Positions 4,470-19,126 of a stretch of 32,000 nt of DNA are shown one piece after another. The notes under the pieces are model-generated. The model was given only the letters and a program-made list of their open reading frames with translations, had not been told where the DNA came from and ran no database searches. Every line of letters begins with the position of its first letter. The stretch's first letter is position 1. The position numbers were made by a program, and so were the translations under genes. The stretch is taken from the NCBI GenBank assembly GCA_043787635.1, contig JAYVUU010000133.1, positions 25,575 to 57,574 of the forward strand, written 5' to 3'. Source of the stretch: Synechococcales cyanobacterium (GTDB lineage Bacteria > Cyanobacteriota > Cyanobacteriia > Leptolyngbyales > Leptolyngbyaceae).

Positions 4470-4622
4470 GCGCTGCTGATTGGTGCGATGGATGATTTTT
4501 GTGGTGATTGGAAAATGATCGAGTCTGTGTCTTTTTTGGTTCAGATAAGATGAGAAATGTTAGGGTTACGGTACCAATTTGAGTTTTTTTCACAAATTCT
4601 TGAATTTAGACTAAGGAAACCT

Positions 4623-5897
4623 ATGCTAATTGAATTTACAGTTGGAAATTATCGATCGTTCAAAGAACCCGTCACTCTAAGCATGGTTGCAACAAGGCTT
4701 GTTGCAGACTCTAAAAACAAAGAGATAGACGACAACAATATTTTTAAAATCGACAAAAATATCAGCCTTCTAAAGAGTGCTGCAATTTATGGTGCTAATG
4801 CTAGTGGAAAAAGTAACATTGCATTAGCACTACAATTCATGAAATCTTTCATGTTAAATTCTTCTCGCGAAACTCAAAGTACAGACGAGATTGCGGTGGA
4901 GCCATTTCTTCTGAGCACTGAAACCGAAAATGAACCGTCTTTATTTGAGATAGTATTTTTTTTCAATGGTCAAAGATACCGCTACGGATTTGAAGCAACA
5001 ACAAAACAAATAGTTTCTGAATGGCTTTACTACGTTCCTAAAACAAAGGAGACTGTTCTATTCAATCGCGATTTGACAGCTATTAAATCAAGTAAAGTAT
5101 TTGGGGCCAATGGAATAGAAAAAATAACAAGGCGAAATGCACTGTTCTTATCTGTCTCTGCCCAGTTTAATGTTGGGATCGCTGAGAAAATCTTAGCTTT
5201 CATAAAAAAAAGCATAAATTTGATTTCTGGATTAGACGAGTCTTACTTCGCCTACAGCTTCGGTTGTATTGCTGAGGGACCGCACCAAAATGAAATTCTG
5301 AACTTTATTAAAAATCTTGATTTAGGAATTAATAATATCAGAGTGTCACAATCAGAAATAACAATGGATAATTTACCCCAGGAGTTGCCAGAGAAGGTTA
5401 GACAAATGATTGTAGATCGAGGCGATGGAACGGCTATATCTGTTAGGACTTCTCACTGCAAGTTTTCTCCAGATGGAACCCATACCTCCATCGTTGATTT
5501 TGAATTATCAGAGCACGAATCAGAGGGTACGCAGAAGATTTTTGCCTTAGCAGGTCCGATTATAAATACTCTAAAAACAGGAGATACCTTAATTGTTGAC
5601 GAGCTAGATGCAAAGTTACACCCTCTGCTTAGTCTTGCAATCATTAAGCTATTTAATTCTAGTACAAGTAATCCTAATAATGCACAATTGATATTTATGA
5701 CGCATGATACAAATCTATTGAGTAACAAAATCTTTCGTCGTGATCAGATTTGGTTTACCGAGAAAAACCGTTACGGTGCAACGGCTCTGTACTCCTTAGC
5801 AGAATACAATATTCGTAGTGATGCTTCTTTTGAAAGTGATTATATCAAAGGAAAATATGGTGCAGTTCCTTACATTGGTGATCTTCAGTTCATCTAA
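4623..5897 (+). CDS. AAA_21/ABC-like ATPase of the AbiLi/RloA type (defence-associated)
   Basis: I place the start at ATG 4623 because AAGGA lies 8 nt upstream; the ORF-track start at 4557 is probably too early. It begins MLIEFTVGNYRSFKE, then has Walker A YGANASGKSN, Walker B TLIVDELDAKLHP, H-loop LIFMTHDTNLL and a C-terminal KGKYGAVPYIG. The gene is AT-rich. Confidence 0.85.
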   Translation: MLIEFTVGNYRSFKEPVTLSMVATRLVADSKNKEIDDNNIFKIDKNISLLKSAAIYGANASGKSNIALALQFMKSFMLNSSRETQSTDEIAVEPFLLSTETENEPSLFEIVFFFNGQRYRYGFEATTKQIVSEWLYYVPKTKETVLFNRDLTAIKSSKVFGANGIEKITRRNALFLSVSAQFNVGIAEKILAFIKKSINLISGLDESYFAYSFGCIAEGPHQNEILNFIKNLDLGINNIRVSQSEITMDNLPQELPEKVRQMIVDRGDGTAISVRTSHCKFSPDGTHTSIVDFELSEHESEGTQKIFALAGPIINTLKTGDTLIVDELDAKLHPLLSLAIIKLFNSSTSNPNNAQLIFMTHDTNLLSNKIFRRDQIWFTEKNRYGATALYSLAEYNIRSDASFESDYIKGKYGAVPYIGDLQFI

Positions 5898-5902
5898 ATT
5901 CT

Positions 5903-6499
5903 ATGGCTAAACGATCGGTTAATGCAAAAGGGTATTCAGATAGAAAATTAAATACTAGAGAAGTAAAGGAAACATTTCTCATTGTCTGCGAAGGAACTAA
6001 AACTGAGCCAAGTTACTTTCGGCGTTTTCGAGTTCCAAAAGAAGTTCTCGCAATAGAAGGTCTTGGGGAAAATCCTACAAGGGTCGTTGAACGTGCAATC
6101 ACCCGTGCGAAGGAAGAGGAATTTGATCAAGTTTGGTGCGTATTCGATCGGGATGATTTTCCCGTTCCAGATATTAGCAAAGCTTTTGAACTAGCTAAAA
6201 AGCATAAGATCGAAATTGCTTATTCCAATGAATCATTTGAGCTTTGGTATATTTTACATTTTGAATTTCTAAATACTGGAATTTCTCGTAAAGACTATAG
6301 TAAAAAGCTCTCCGATTTAACAGGAAAATCCTATGCTAAAAATAGTCGCGATATGTACGATGATTTATTGAATTTGCAACCGATCGCAATTAAAAATGCC
6401 GATCGGCTTCTTGAGGAATACCCAAACCACAATCCCGTAACAGATAACCCATCCACAACAGTTCATCATTTGGTAAAGCAACTAAACCGATTCATTTAG
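5903..6499 (+). CDS. RloB-like (AbiLii-type) protein, Toprim-like predicted nuclease
   Basis: It starts 5 nt after the ATPase stop. FLIVCEGTKTEPSYF (the conserved CEG glutamate), WCVFDRDDF (DxD) and AYSNESFELWYILHF are the RloB family hallmarks. Confidence 0.8.
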   Translation: MAKRSVNAKGYSDRKLNTREVKETFLIVCEGTKTEPSYFRRFRVPKEVLAIEGLGENPTRVVERAITRAKEEEFDQVWCVFDRDDFPVPDISKAFELAKKHKIEIAYSNESFELWYILHFEFLNTGISRKDYSKKLSDLTGKSYAKNSRDMYDDLLNLQPIAIKNADRLLEEYPNHNPVTDNPSTTVHHLVKQLNRFI

Positions 6500-15941: not shown

Positions 15942-16013
<72 letters not shown>

Positions 16014-16186: not shown

Positions 16187-16564
16187 ATGGACCCGATTAC
16201 TTTGGCAACGATCGCGGCAACACTTATTTTGACGAAGGCGATCGAAAAGGTCGGTGAGAAGATTGGGGAGCGGGGAATTAAGGAGGGCGGAAAGCTGGTA
16301 GATGTGTTGCGGCGGAAGGCTCCCGATACGGTGAAACGGTTGGAGGCGGTGGCTGACCCAAATGTGATTGATGCAGAACTGATTGAGGAAGTGCGGAAGG
16401 TGGCGGCGGTAGAACCGGAAGTGCAGGCGGCTGTGACTGCGACGGCTAATGCGATTCAACAACAGTTTGGTGGCGTAACTAATCAGGCTCAACTGGCAGA
16501 GAAGATTGGGATGGTTTTTCAAGGGGGGTATAACCCGGTCACGATTGACAACTTTAATTTTTGA
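16187..16564 (+). CDS. 125-aa helical module with a hydrophobic N-terminal helix and a Gly/Asn/Gln-rich tail; in frame with the downstream NB-ARC gene
   Basis: I take the ATG at 16187 (MDPITLATIAATLILTKAIEK...) as the start; the ORF-track start at 16112 is probably too early. The middle is charged and helical. The tail reads QQQFGGVTNQAQLAEKIGMVFQGGYNPVTIDNFNF. It ends at TGA 16562-16564, in the same frame as 16604-18505. Confidence 0.6.
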   Translation: MDPITLATIAATLILTKAIEKVGEKIGERGIKEGGKLVDVLRRKAPDTVKRLEAVADPNVIDAELIEEVRKVAAVEPEVQAAVTATANAIQQQFGGVTNQAQLAEKIGMVFQGGYNPVTIDNFNF

Positions 16565-16603
16565 CTGAAGCCGTCGATCGGTGCTGCGACAAAGTTAAGC
16601 ATC

Positions 16604-18505
16604 TTGTACGATATTCCGGTTGGGTTGGGTTCTAAGACGTTTGTGGGTCGCGATCGGGCGATGGGGGAGCTGTGTGAGTTGTTGGAGTCGTCGTCGCGGG
16701 TGGCGATCGTGGCGGCTTCGGGAATGGGCGGTGTGGGGAAGACGGAGTTGGCAGCGCAATATGCTAAGAACTCGGAGGCGGAGGGGCGCTATGGGGCGGG
16801 AATTTGGTGGCTGGATGCACGATCGGCGGTGGTGGTGGGGCTTTTGGATCGGGCAAGGCGGATGGGCATTCAGGTGAATGATCAGATTGTGGATGAGGTG
16901 GAGCGGGTTCAGGATTGCTATGGGCAATGGTTGCGAGGGTTGCCTGGTGAGGCGTTGGTGGTGTTTGACAATGTGGAGGATTGGGAGGCGGTGAGGCGGT
17001 TTTTTCCCCGTGATGGTCGGGTGCGGGTGTTGGTGACGATGCGGGAAGACCGATCGGAGAAGGGGGTGCAGCCGTTGCGGTTGGGGGTGTTGTTGCCGTT
17101 GGATGGGTTTCGGTTGTTGGGGGAGGTGAGTGGGGCGATCGATCGGATTACGGTTGATCAATTAGAGGCGGAGGCGTTGTGTGAGGATTTGGGCTATTTG
17201 CCGTTGGCGATCGAGTTGGTGGGTGGGCTGTTGAAGTTGGAGCCGGATTGGTCTGTTGGGCGGGTGCGAGGTGCGTTGACGCGGGAGTTGAAATCGGGTG
17301 CGTTGTCACCTGTGAATGCGGCGATCGAGTTGAGTTGGGTGCAGTTGAGCAATGCGGAACGGCAGTTGTTGGGGATGGTGGCGACGTTTGGGATGGGGGC
17401 GGTGGTGTGGGAGTGGGTGGAGGCGGTGGTAATGAGGAGTGAGGTTCAGGTTAAACCACGGGGACGGATTGGGCGATTTCTGGGACGATCGCCGAGAGCG
17501 GTTCAACAATGGTGTTTTTTATTGGATGATTCGGGTTTAGTTGCGGCGCGGCGGCGGTTGGTGGCGTTGAATTTGTTGGGGAGATCGGGTGAGAATTTGT
17601 ATGGGTTACATCCGTTGGTTCGATCGTTTGTCCGGGGAAAAATGACGACGGAGATTGCGCCGGAGGATGCCATTGGGCGGGCGTTTGCTCAGGTGATGGT
17701 GGCGAAGGCAAGCACGATTCAGCCGACGGTGGTTGTTGCTGAACGGGAATGGGTGGCGCTGGCTGTCCCGCATCTTTTGGAGGTGATGGCAGAGTGGACG
17801 AGAGTATTGGATGAAACAGATAAGACTTGGTGCGGGACTGGACTTGCGAGATTTTATGTGAGCTTGAGTCTTTGGACTGAAGCGGAACGATGTTATGAAT
17901 CGGCGTTGGAAATCAGACGATCGGAATTAGGCGATCGTCATCCCGATACCGCAACGAGTCTGAATAATTTGGCATATTTGTACAAATCAATGGGTGAGTA
18001 CGATCGGGCATTGCCATTGTATGAATCGGCGTTGGAAATCTATCGATCGGAATTAGGCGATCGTCATCCTGATACCGCAACGAGTCTGAATAATTTGGCA
18101 TATTTGTACTCATCAATGGGTCAGTACGATCGGGCATTGCCATTGTATGAATCGGCGTTGGAAATCAGTCGATCGGAATTAGGCGATCGTCATCCCGATA
18201 CCGCAACGAGTCTGAATAATTTGGCAGCTTTGTACTCATCAATGGGTCAGTACGATCGGGCATTGCCATTGTATGAATCGGCGTTGGAAATCAGGCGATC
18301 GGAATTAGGCGATCGTCATCCCTCTACCGCAACGAGTCTGAATAATTTGGCATATTTGTACAAATCAATGGGTCAGTACGATCGGGCCTTGCCATTGTAT
18401 GAATCGGCTGTAGGTATTCTTGAAGACGTTTTAGGACCAGAGCATCCGAATACAAAAGTAATGCAAGGGAATTTACGATTCTTACGGGAGGCGATGGCAA
18501 ATTGA
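16604..18505 (+). CDS. STAND NTPase: NB-ARC domain + winged helix + TPR (TPR_10/12, kinesin-light-chain type) array, with no N-terminal effector domain of its own
   Basis: It has the FVGRD lead-in (16640-16654), Walker A GMGGVGKT (16721-16744), Walker B LVVFDNVED, RVLVTMRE, the GLPL-like LGYLPLAIELVGG, LHPLVRSF, then 42-aa TPR units. Only a TTG (16604) or CTG (16565) start is available upstream of the lead-in. The first ATG is at 16661. Confidence 0.85.
   Translation: MYDIPVGLGSKTFVGRDRAMGELCELLESSSRVAIVAASGMGGVGKTELAAQYAKNSEAEGRYGAGIWWLDARSAVVVGLLDRARRMGIQVNDQIVDEVERVQDCYGQWLRGLPGEALVVFDNVEDWEAVRRFFPRDGRVRVLVTMREDRSEKGVQPLRLGVLLPLDGFRLLGEVSGAIDRITVDQLEAEALCEDLGYLPLAIELVGGLLKLEPDWSVGRVRGALTRELKSGALSPVNAAIELSWVQLSNAERQLLGMVATFGMGAVVWEWVEAVVMRSEVQVKPRGRIGRFLGRSPRAVQQWCFLLDDSGLVAARRRLVALNLLGRSGENLYGLHPLVRSFVRGKMTTEIAPEDAIGRAFAQVMVAKASTIQPTVVVAEREWVALAVPHLLEVMAEWTRVLDETDKTWCGTGLARFYVSLSLWTEAERCYESALEIRRSELGDRHPDTATSLNNLAYLYKSMGEYDRALPLYESALEIYRSELGDRHPDTATSLNNLAYLYSSMGQYDRALPLYESALEISRSELGDRHPDTATSLNNLAALYSSMGQYDRALPLYESALEIRRSELGDRHPSTATSLNNLAYLYKSMGQYDRALPLYESAVGILEDVLGPEHPNTKVMQGNLRFLREAMAN
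17894..18397 (+). repeat. Four near-identical 126-bp tandem units encoding 42-aa TPR repeats (YESALEI.RSELGDRHP.TATSLNNLA.LY.SMG.YDRALPL)
   Basis: Unit starts are at 17894, 18020, 18146 and 18272, so the period is exactly 126. A diverged fifth unit starts at 18398. The array is in frame inside the NB-ARC/TPR CDS. Confidence 0.95.
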
Positions 18506-18523
18506 TCGGTGATTCCAAAGTTT

Positions 18524-18684
18524 AGATCCCCCTAAATCCCCTTTATGAAGTTGCTGTGCATACACAAGTCTGAAACCCGTCATCCGATAGACCCGATCCC
18601 CCTAAATCCCCCTTAAAAAGGGGGACTATGAAATAAGATTTGTTCTTGTTCCCCCTTTTTAAGGGGGCTAGGGGGATCGGACCG
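18524..18684. repeat. MITE-like palindromic repeat (family 1) with about 20-bp terminal inverted repeats, plus a solo terminal copy
   Basis: The core at 18585-18684 is bounded by CCGATCCCCCTAAATCCCCCTT and AAGGGGGCTAGGGGGATCGG. It contains the internal hairpins CCCCCTTAAAAAGGGGG and CCCCCTTTTTAAGGGGG. A solo copy, GATCCCCCTAAATCCCCTT, lies at 18525-18543. A second full copy lies inverted at 26762-26882. Confidence 0.8.
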
Positions 18685-19126
18685 AACCTGAAAACAAAGA
18701 TCTCAACAGTAGCTCTCAACAGCCTCAATTCTGTACTCAACGCCGATCGTTTATAATGGGAACAATTCAAACATTTTGATTCATCATGCAAATTCCCGGA
18801 GAAAAGCAAACCACATCAGTTATATCCCGATCGAACCCGATCGAACAACGACGTGCGATCGCCTACAGCATGGACACCCTAATCCCTGGACTCTACATTT
18901 GGTTCTATGGCTTGCATTTACGTATTGGTGGGTTTAAAGTCAACCCGTGTGATTCAAGGCAGAAGCATTCAAAATAAATGAAAGCATTTTATATTAATTG
19001 AATTTCCCCACTAAAATCCATCTCGCAGCCAATTTGAAAACTAGAACATCTCCGATCGTTGAATCTGAATTTCCCCCATAGCTTAGAGACAAGTTCCCTC
19101 GCAGAAATTTCAGGATCCAACGATCG

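Follow-up and report, generated by a model that had tools for sequence, protein, structure and literature searches.

How can the units of a repeat domain stay almost identical in their DNA and still differ from one another at a handful of codons, several of which have changed at two or three bases? The question is raised by a gene for an NB-ARC/TPR protein in a Synechococcales cyanobacterium, within a stretch of 32,000 nucleotides (contig JAYVUU010000133.1, positions 25,575 to 57,574; hereafter the window), whose C-terminal part is an array of four tandem TPR units. The window belongs to a short-read sediment metagenome assembly and is present in four sediment metagenomes. An earlier note, made from the DNA letters alone, had proposed that homogenisation of the repeats is combined here with diversifying selection on a ligand-contact surface. 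This proposal is supported by the arrays of relatives, by the low divergence of the repeat framework and by an excess of non-synonymous over synonymous change. On this evidence we consider it likely that the four 42-residue units, of the kinesin light chain (KLC) type, are the homogenised, hypervariable solenoid by which an NB-ARC STAND ATPase of a filamentous-type cyanobacterium senses its ligand.

Tandem Repeats Finder detects the array at 17894-18408 with a period of 126 bp (4.1 copies, 94% matches, score 925), and slicing of 17894-18397 gives four in-frame units of 42 codons (Table 1). The units share 117-121 of 126 bases pairwise (93-96%) and 37-40 of 42 residues (88-95%), which exceeds the mark of about 85% for highly internally conserved (HIC) repeats. 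A codon-by-codon check agrees with the reading of the earlier note throughout: four near-identical units, with 35 of the 42 codons invariant. The variation amounts to 12 columns, all of them within codons 8, 17, 18, 28, 31, 35 and 39; random placement would concentrate 12 columns in seven codons or fewer with P = 2.3e-4, and the six adjacent pairs of variable columns have P = 6e-5. In units 1 to 4, codon 8 reads AGA, TAT, AGT and AGG, codon 18 reads GAT three times and then TCT, codon 28 TAT, TAT, GCT and TAT, codon 31 AAA, TCA, TCA and AAA, and codon 35 GAG followed by three CAG, so that replacements of several bases within single codons are real and cluster beyond chance. Codons 17 (CCC/CCT) and 39 (GCA/GCC) change synonymously. 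Non-synonymous change is confined to codons 8, 18, 28, 31 and 35, with a non-synonymous divergence (pN) of 0.44; the other 37 codons have a pN of 0.000 and a synonymous divergence (pS) of 0.0375. The array is followed by a degenerate capping unit that has just 53-54 of 126 bases in common with the conserved ones. The window contains 173 copies of the hexamer CGATCG, which forms the core of the HIP1 palindrome of cyanobacteria, where 7.8 would be expected, and each TPR unit holds three copies, about four times the window average.

The reading frame of the gene runs from 16604 or 16643 to 18505 on the forward strand. Its N-terminal part matches the Pfam NB-ARC family (E = 7.5e-14, residues 19-212, approximately 16658-17239) and contains the Walker A motif GMGGVGKT; in a sequence search of the PDB this part retrieves the plant NLRs NRC3 and ZAR1. 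The repeat part matches TPR_12 (E = 3.4e-88) and TPR_10 (E = 9.7e-68), the latter from position 1 to 42 of the 42-residue model, and it shows both the LNNLA...Y..G.Y..A consensus and the 42-residue period of KLC-type TPRs. Its best counterparts in the PDB are KLC1 (E = 2e-53, gapless over the four units) and the Podospora '42PR' structures 4Y6C (E = 5e-21) and 4Y6W. An AlphaFold2 model built with 41 sequences reached a mean pLDDT of 90, with 97-98 in the TPR region, and Foldseek related it to 6mfv (a STAND-TPR protein), Apaf-1, NRC2/3 and KLC TPR domains. As judged from these matches and from the model, the gene encodes an NLR-like NB-ARC STAND ATPase with a C-terminal TPR repeat domain.

The model also shows where the variable residues lie. 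Each unit consists of helix A (unit positions 17-32), a loop (33-35) and helix B (36-42 together with 1-12), the two helices being 16 and 19 residues long. According to the Pfam TPR_1 match, unit position p corresponds to canonical TPR position p-19, so that positions 21, 28, 31 and 32 are TPR positions 2, 9, 12 and 13, and Asn24 and Asn25 are positions 5 and 6. The concave ligand face of TPR domains is lined by positions 2, 5, 9, 12, 13, 33 and 34 (Magliery and Regan). The contacts between KLC1 and JIP1 fall on the same places, their residue letters agreeing with the gapless KLC1 alignment: K340 lies at unit position 21, V305 and L347 at 28, R266 at 31, and K309 and N351 at 32, while the asparagines that bind the peptide backbone lie at 24 (N301, N343) and 25 (N344, N386). 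Position 18 comes second in helix A, three residues ahead of 21. Together with 21, 28 and 31 it forms one stripe, interleaved with the invariant Asn24 and Asn25, along the concave groove, where kinesin light chain binds its peptides. The earlier note had placed positions 28, 31 and 35 on one face of a helix and asked whether the variable positions line this groove. This is so for 28 and 31, which lie on the concave side of helix A and coincide with KLC1 contacts, and by periodicity for 18; position 35 lies in the loop between helices A and B. The alternative it had named, a location in the helix-packing core, does not apply to positions 21, 28 and 31, which map to the concave face.

The same positions vary throughout the family, with homologues from Microcoleus, Nostoc, Leptolyngbya and Acaryochloris. 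We compared seven orthologous loci that are 65-88% identical in the NB-ARC part; their arrays hold 2-5 conserved units whose residues differ at the same positions, and the amino-acid entropy over the 25 units of the orthologues peaks at positions 31 (2.40), 28 (2.37) and 8 (2.00), followed by 1, 21 and 18. In a wider set, comprising the 38 of 120 homologues that have at least three units each at least 80% identical to another unit, the within-array mismatch is 0.82, 0.79, 0.70, 0.66 and 0.59 at positions 31, 28, 8, 21 and 18, and no higher than 0.32 anywhere else. Four of the five variable codons named in the earlier note, 8, 18, 28 and 31, are thus hypervariable in the family as well; codon 35 is not (0.11), and the note missed position 21, which is hypervariable across the family but an invariant threonine in the window array. 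The finished genomes of Acaryochloris marina MBIC11017 and S15 contain related NLRs with 6-10 units that are 89-99% identical and vary at these same positions. As the earlier note's view of a fast-changing array would have it, relatives do not carry identical arrays: the number of units differs among the orthologues, and two S15 paralogues with 95.6% NB-ARC DNA identity have 10 and 9 units with array-specific frameworks. Two metagenome scans for relatives, one by protein and one by alignment, returned nothing close, and a genome scan found one close locus only (L008), truncated at a contig end.

Divergence of the framework, that is of the codons that are not hypervariable, argues that the units of an array evolve together. 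Within the window array it is 1.4%, as opposed to 3.8-16% between the window units and those of other arrays, and the NB-ARC DNA differs from that of the orthologues by 7-19%. The nearest neighbour of each window unit is another window unit, the pattern of concerted evolution, and Acaryochloris units are likewise closer within than between arrays. Orthologous arrays hold framework residues of their own in fixed form, for example D37 instead of E37 or YES instead of FKD. These comparisons show that the units have been kept near-identical by recent recombination within the array, through unequal crossing-over or gene conversion.

Short-read assemblies mis-count arrays of this kind. The Logan unitigs of the four samples break within the array, and words shared by the repeats are 3-4.3 times as deep as single-copy sequence. 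Only three letters of the array vary, in codons 28, 31 and 8; for codon 8 of unit 3 (AGT), three of the four samples have AGG in their unitigs. Two unit variants do not occur in the window sequence: one has AGG at codon 8 together with CCC GAT at 17-18 and about three times single-copy depth in three samples, the other differs at codons 28 and 31 and is near single-copy depth. A search for Nanopore or PacBio runs with the locus found none. Both these variants and the interruption of the unitigs at the array would be expected if the assembly had collapsed several strains or paralogues into a chimera, the differences between units being in truth differences between strains. We consider such an artefact unlikely, given that the depth of the shared words agrees with about four units, that a like pattern occurs on a 659-kb contig (L016) and that it recurs in the finished genomes of the two cultured Acaryochloris strains. 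The phenomenon is therefore real, although the order and number of units in this particular array may be one unit off.

What the protein does was approached through its architecture and its surroundings. From the architecture we infer a role as an immune or allorecognition sensor. The specificity for a ligand would be set by the combination of hypervariable residues across the units, and new specificities would arise fast by reshuffling of units, unequal recombination, gene conversion and change in unit number. Ligand binding would release oligomerisation of the NB-ARC domain, and the oligomerised protein would activate the helical, amyloid-tailed protein encoded upstream, leading to an immune or self/non-self response. 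A STAND protein of non-immune, regulatory function (MalT- or AfsR-like signalling, or a scaffold) could have the same domains, with TPRs that bind a conserved partner and variability that plays no part in recognition. The neighbours of the module are indeed housekeeping genes (ArsA, sulfite/nitrite reductase, TrmD, tRNA-Val), and PADLOC matches the NLR with generic 'TPR' models only (E = 4.5e-14 and 1.6e-7) and with no Avs, NLR or bNACHT model. Nevertheless, the protein carries no DNA-binding or other output domain, and a conserved partner would constrain the contact positions, which are hypervariable here. Its relatives are paired with upstream genes for TIR, caspase, alpha/beta-hydrolase and small helical, pore-former-like proteins, which are typical effectors of conflict systems. 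The orthologous two-gene modules, moreover, lie in unrelated contexts, beside cytochrome oxidase genes or Uma2 nucleases or on plasmids, so the module appears to be mobile; many relatives are carried by conjugative plasmids. Among the orthologues L001-L007, very similar NB-ARC cores are combined with three types of C-terminal cap and at least three unrelated families of upstream reading frame, which suggests modular recombination at both ends of the gene. A purely regulatory role thus seems improbable to us, and the sensor reading is retained.

Selection on the variable codons bears on a simpler account, in which a recent tandem duplication was followed by ordinary drift and the variable codons merely mark an unconstrained surface. 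In favour of this account are the shortness of the array, the small sample of four units and the low framework pS (0.038). In the window, however, pN at the five hypervariable codons is 0.42, and the range of 0.42-0.44 obtained for the variable codons is about 11 times the framework pS, a distance by which neutral sites cannot outpace synonymous ones. An excess of pN over framework pS is found in six of the seven loci, where pN at the hypervariable codons lies between 0.34 and 0.70; in L002 the framework pS of 0.47 is above that of the homogenised arrays and close to the hypervariable pN of 0.58. About 10 non-synonymous events at hypervariable codons face 3 synonymous ones in the whole unit (Fisher P = 4e-5), the changes affect several bases inside single codons and are strongly clustered (P = 2e-4), and the identical five positions are hypervariable in 38 independent arrays. 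The same codon alternatives recur in the seven loci, such as AGG/AGT at codon 8, GAT/TCT at 18 and TCA/AGA/AAA at 31, so that much of the variation is an old repertoire that has been reassorted and not fresh point mutation. Finally, orthologues that are 7-19% apart in NB-ARC carry internally homogenised arrays, which calls for continued homogenisation and not for a single duplication; drift after duplication is accordingly a poor candidate. Poorest of all is targeted mutagenesis, in which a diversity-generating retroelement or another hypermutation system would write the variable codons: such elements are reported to diversify STAND-linked sensors in multicellular cyanobacteria (PMC10907252), but the changes here are not adenine-specific (GAT to TCT, TAT to GCT, AGA/TAT/AGT), no reverse transcriptase occurs among the window reading frames scanned, Tandem Repeats Finder locates no further unit copy in the window, and the small codon repertoire common to the loci looks like reassortment rather than random mutagenesis.

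Several points weigh against a homogenised and hypervariable immune sensor. The exact number and order of the units rest on a short-read metagenome assembly. The window array offers only four units and some 13 substitutions, which makes the per-site statistics dependent on the relatives, and the signal of selection consists of pN/pS counts and not of a recombination-aware codon model. The arrays of L002 and L006 are not homogenised (framework divergence 14-18%), so homogenisation must be specific to certain lineages. Position 18 is put in the groove by helical periodicity alone, and position 8, in the C-terminal third of helix B, is not assigned to the groove face. Lastly, no PADLOC defence model beyond generic TPR is matched, and the module sits among housekeeping genes.

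The NLR frame begins at or just before FVGRD, and its sole candidate effector is the 125-aa upstream ORF (open reading frame) on the other side of an in-frame TGA. The upstream protein begins with M-D-P and a hydrophobic helix (MDPITLATIAATL...), continues as a helical bundle, and is modelled by AlphaFold2 as five helices and a disordered tail (pLDDT 74). It matched nothing in Pfam or PADLOC, and among PDB folds the best that Foldseek offered was E = 2.4; its predicted build bears a resemblance to the 'Bell domain'. The family of this small ORF comprises 94 clusters of about 115-128 aa, all of which stand alone, none (0 of 94) being fused to a downstream protein by a sense codon. One variant of 177 aa (P0129, on a 725-nt contig) lacks the N/Q/G-rich tail and carries there an EAD9 'effector-associated domain' (Pfam PF19962, E = 9e-8), which fits a tail that acts as an exchangeable adaptor.

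The stop codon of this ORF is followed by a C and by a linker that stays open in the NLR frame, a configuration (TGA-C with the frame open to FVGR) found at 17 loci, finished genomes included: the window, L001-L008, L016, L017, L023, L025 and L028-L031. The linker measures 26 codons in the window and its close relatives and is homologous to a segment that is translated in relatives having their own ATG. Over its 78 nt, pN/pS is 0.52 in frame and 0.64 and 1.44 in the other two frames, a difference that is suggestive only. The 17 loci span at least three unrelated families of upstream ORF, one of them an alpha/beta hydrolase with a similar tail, and NB-ARC identities down to about 35%. In 7 of the 17 the stretch from the stop to FVGR contains neither ATG nor GTG nor TTG, and for the NLR of A. 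marina pREB4 RefSeq annotates an ATT start. Three further loci (Table 1) have the NLR in the -1 frame. Their upstream ORFs end with A_AAA_AAG in register, either directly ahead of the stop codon or two codons earlier; this slippery heptamer is that of dnaX, and of all such heptamers it shifts most readily in E. coli. On a Leptolyngbya boryana plasmid (L024:1784-1810) the NLR is again in the -1 frame, after TAG-CTG and a run of seven G, which may represent a shift site (G_GGG_GGG), a tract subject to phase variation or a sequencing error in a homopolymer. Leptolyngbya sp. PCC 6406 has an orphan copy of the small ORF (L018-L022) with no NLR 3' of it, and there the frame closes two codons on (TGA CCA GCG TAG), as would be expected if linkers stay open only in front of an NLR. 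Of 25 ORFs in the window, 5 end in TGA, the minority stop codon.

Two other accounts of the in-frame stop were rejected. A pseudogene produced by a nonsense mutation in a fusion does not account for a stop that is kept in all relatives and in the 94 small-ORF clusters, and an alternative genetic code is incompatible with the NLR gene and other window genes ending in TGA. We propose, tentatively and at slightly less than even chances, that the pair is a two-product module expressed through programmed readthrough or frameshifting, with the TPR array as its sensor. Termination at the leaky TGA-C would yield the free effector, made of a helical, pore-former-like domain and an amyloid-like tail, and rare readthrough would add a minor effector-tail-NB-ARC-TPR fusion. 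Ligand binding would then cause the fusion to oligomerise, and in this state it would nucleate or activate the free effector, which is present in excess. In relatives, a -1 frameshift at A_AAA_AAG would replace TGA-C at the end of ORFs for TIR-domain or other effectors. The window itself has TTG and GTG codons from which the NLR could be initiated independently. RNAalifold proposes a long-range stem of about 17 bp between 16570-16590, after the TGA, and 16647-16665, at the start of FVGRD, but its pairs are nearly invariant, with one compensatory change, and the stem is thus uninformative; no conserved RNA stimulator was demonstrated at the junction by this method. We found no report of such a recoding junction in the literature searched. 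If the proposal is correct, a leaky stop or frameshift site may set the ratio of sensor to effector in bacteria, which could matter more than the array itself.

Some other elements of the window lie near the module or belong to known defence genes. A tRNA-Val(CAC) gene is located at 15942-16013, about 170 bp 5' of the two-gene module. Just 3' of the NLR gene, at 18520-18700, there is a short palindromic element with runs of G and C (GATCCCCCTAAATCCCC ... GGGGGATCGG), to which copies at 18525, 18595 and 26856 (reverse strand) are related. In the unitigs it reaches a depth of about 1000-2300x where the flanks have about 6x, so that it is either a very abundant dispersed repeat or one common to many members of the community. 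An AbiL-type abortive-infection pair occupies 4557-6499 on the forward strand and is composed of an AAA_21 ATPase (PADLOC AbiLi, E = 9.5e-105) and an RloB-like protein (PADLOC AbiLii, E = 2e-30).

Table 1. Features of the two-gene module in the window, and A_AAA_AAG sites of relatives with a -1-frame NLR
Feature	Position	Strand	Details
Upstream 125-aa ORF, putative effector/adaptor	16187..16564	+	N/Q/G-rich tail ...QQQFGGVTNQAQLAEKIGMVFQGGYNPVTIDNFNF
In-frame TGA stop, then C, between small ORF and NLR frame	16562..16564	+	
26-codon linker open in the NLR frame	16565..16642	+	LKPSIGAATKLSILYDIPVGLGSKTF; homologous to translated pre-NB-ARC segment
NB-ARC/TPR STAND (NLR-like) gene	16643..18505	+	Minimal ORF, from GTG of (F)VGRDRAM
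TPR unit 1	17894..18019	+	42 codons; R8 D18 T21 Y28 K31 E35
Unit 1, hypervariable codon 8	17915-17917		Later units: +126 each
Unit 1, hypervariable codon 18	17945-17947		Later units: +126 each
Unit 1, hypervariable codon 21	17954-17956		Later units: +126 each
Unit 1, hypervariable codon 28	17975-17977		Later units: +126 each
Unit 1, hypervariable codon 31	17984-17986		Later units: +126 each
TPR unit 2	18020..18145	+	Y8 D18 T21 Y28 S31 Q35
TPR unit 3	18146..18271	+	S8 D18 T21 A28 S31 Q35
TPR unit 4	18272..18397	+	R8 S18 T21 Y28 K31 Q35
Degenerate C-terminal capping TPR unit and TGA stop	18398..18505	+	Stop at 18503-18505
A_AAA_AAG site, Microcoleus	L015:2383-2396		167-aa protein
A_AAA_AAG site, A. 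marina (pREB7 or pREB8)	L032:772-781		TIR-domain ORF
A_AAA_AAG site, A. marina (the other of the two plasmids)	L033:823-832		TIR-domain ORF

Among known systems, the Avs and bNACHT proteins likewise join a STAND ATPase to a C-terminal repeat sensor, and the logic of sensing, oligomerisation and effector activation is presumably alike. The window protein differs in having an NB-ARC domain, outside the Avs and NACHT clades, and the TPR sensors of Avs are not made of near-identical units. Kinesin light chain TPRs and the '42PR' (6FUZ, 3ZFW, 4Y6C/4Y6W) are the best matches in sequence and fold, with the same 42-residue period and the same pair of asparagines in helix A. The KLC repeats, however, are about 30-40% identical to one another and recognise defined cargo motifs, whereas the window units are 88-95% identical and vary at contact positions. 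The variable positions of the array coincide with peptide-contact residues of kinesin light chain, a protein with the same type of repeat, and should our reading hold, positions 8, 18, 21, 28 and 31 would provide a simple rule by which specificity might be predicted or engineered.

Closer in phylogeny are the bacterial NLRs, whose WD and TPR repeats are 80-90% internally identical and for which the fungal regime of repeat evolution has been suggested (Dyrka et al. 2020). The phenomenon of homogenised repeats has therefore already been noted in bacteria and our analysis by position is a modest extension; in the literature searched we found no published map of hypervariable positions in bacterial arrays. 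The NB-ARC/TPR proteins of that study, which come from filamentous cyanobacteria and actinobacteria and have Bell or BASS partners, share phylum and architecture with the window NLR. The Bell domain is a helical bundle of about 100 aa whose first helix is hydrophobic and whose residue 2 or 3 is acidic; the upstream protein resembles it, being small, helical by prediction, negatively charged at residue 2 and hydrophobic in its first helix, and it likewise carries an N/Q/G-rich tail. A BASS pair differs in that one short amyloid motif is present twice, closing the effector and opening the adjacent NLR. This duplication is absent in the window: the NLR ORF has no motif of its own at the N-terminus, and the linker is unrelated to the upstream tail ...IGMVFQGGYNPVTIDNFNF. 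Such a duplicated amyloid motif is found on a plasmid of Pseudanabaena sp. ABRG5-3 (L035), where a caspase-family ORF ends in ...ISGDRNDVIFSQSGTINIKNQ and the NLR, which has its own ATG, carries ...ISGDNNRVVFSQDGSIHI, an arrangement of the BASS type, unlike the single-motif TGA-C loci.

The likeness to fungal NLR repeats, to which the earlier note had drawn attention, is well founded, given that the TPR NLRs of fungi have been shown to evolve under this regime, including 42-residue units modelled on KLC2 (Dyrka 2014). The fungal NLRs with HIC repeats of the TPR, ANK or WD type (Podospora anserina HNWD/het-e/het-d and NB-ARC/TPR genes such as Pa_2_10340; Paoletti 2007, Dyrka 2014) also combine NB-ARC with 42-residue repeats of the TPR_10 type, and they have in common with the window protein an internal identity above 85%, variation in repeat number, concerted evolution and a few hypervariable positions on the concave TPR face according to a kinesin light chain model. 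They differ in reaching up to 14 or more units, against four in the bacterial window array, and in bearing an N-terminal effector, which the window NLR does not have in fused form, its candidate being a separate ORF before the in-frame TGA. If our reading is correct, the fungal way of diversifying NLRs, in which near-identical cassettes are reassorted at a few contact residues, also works in bacteria, and the sensors of prokaryotic and eukaryotic NLRs would be linked either by deep evolutionary descent or by convergence.

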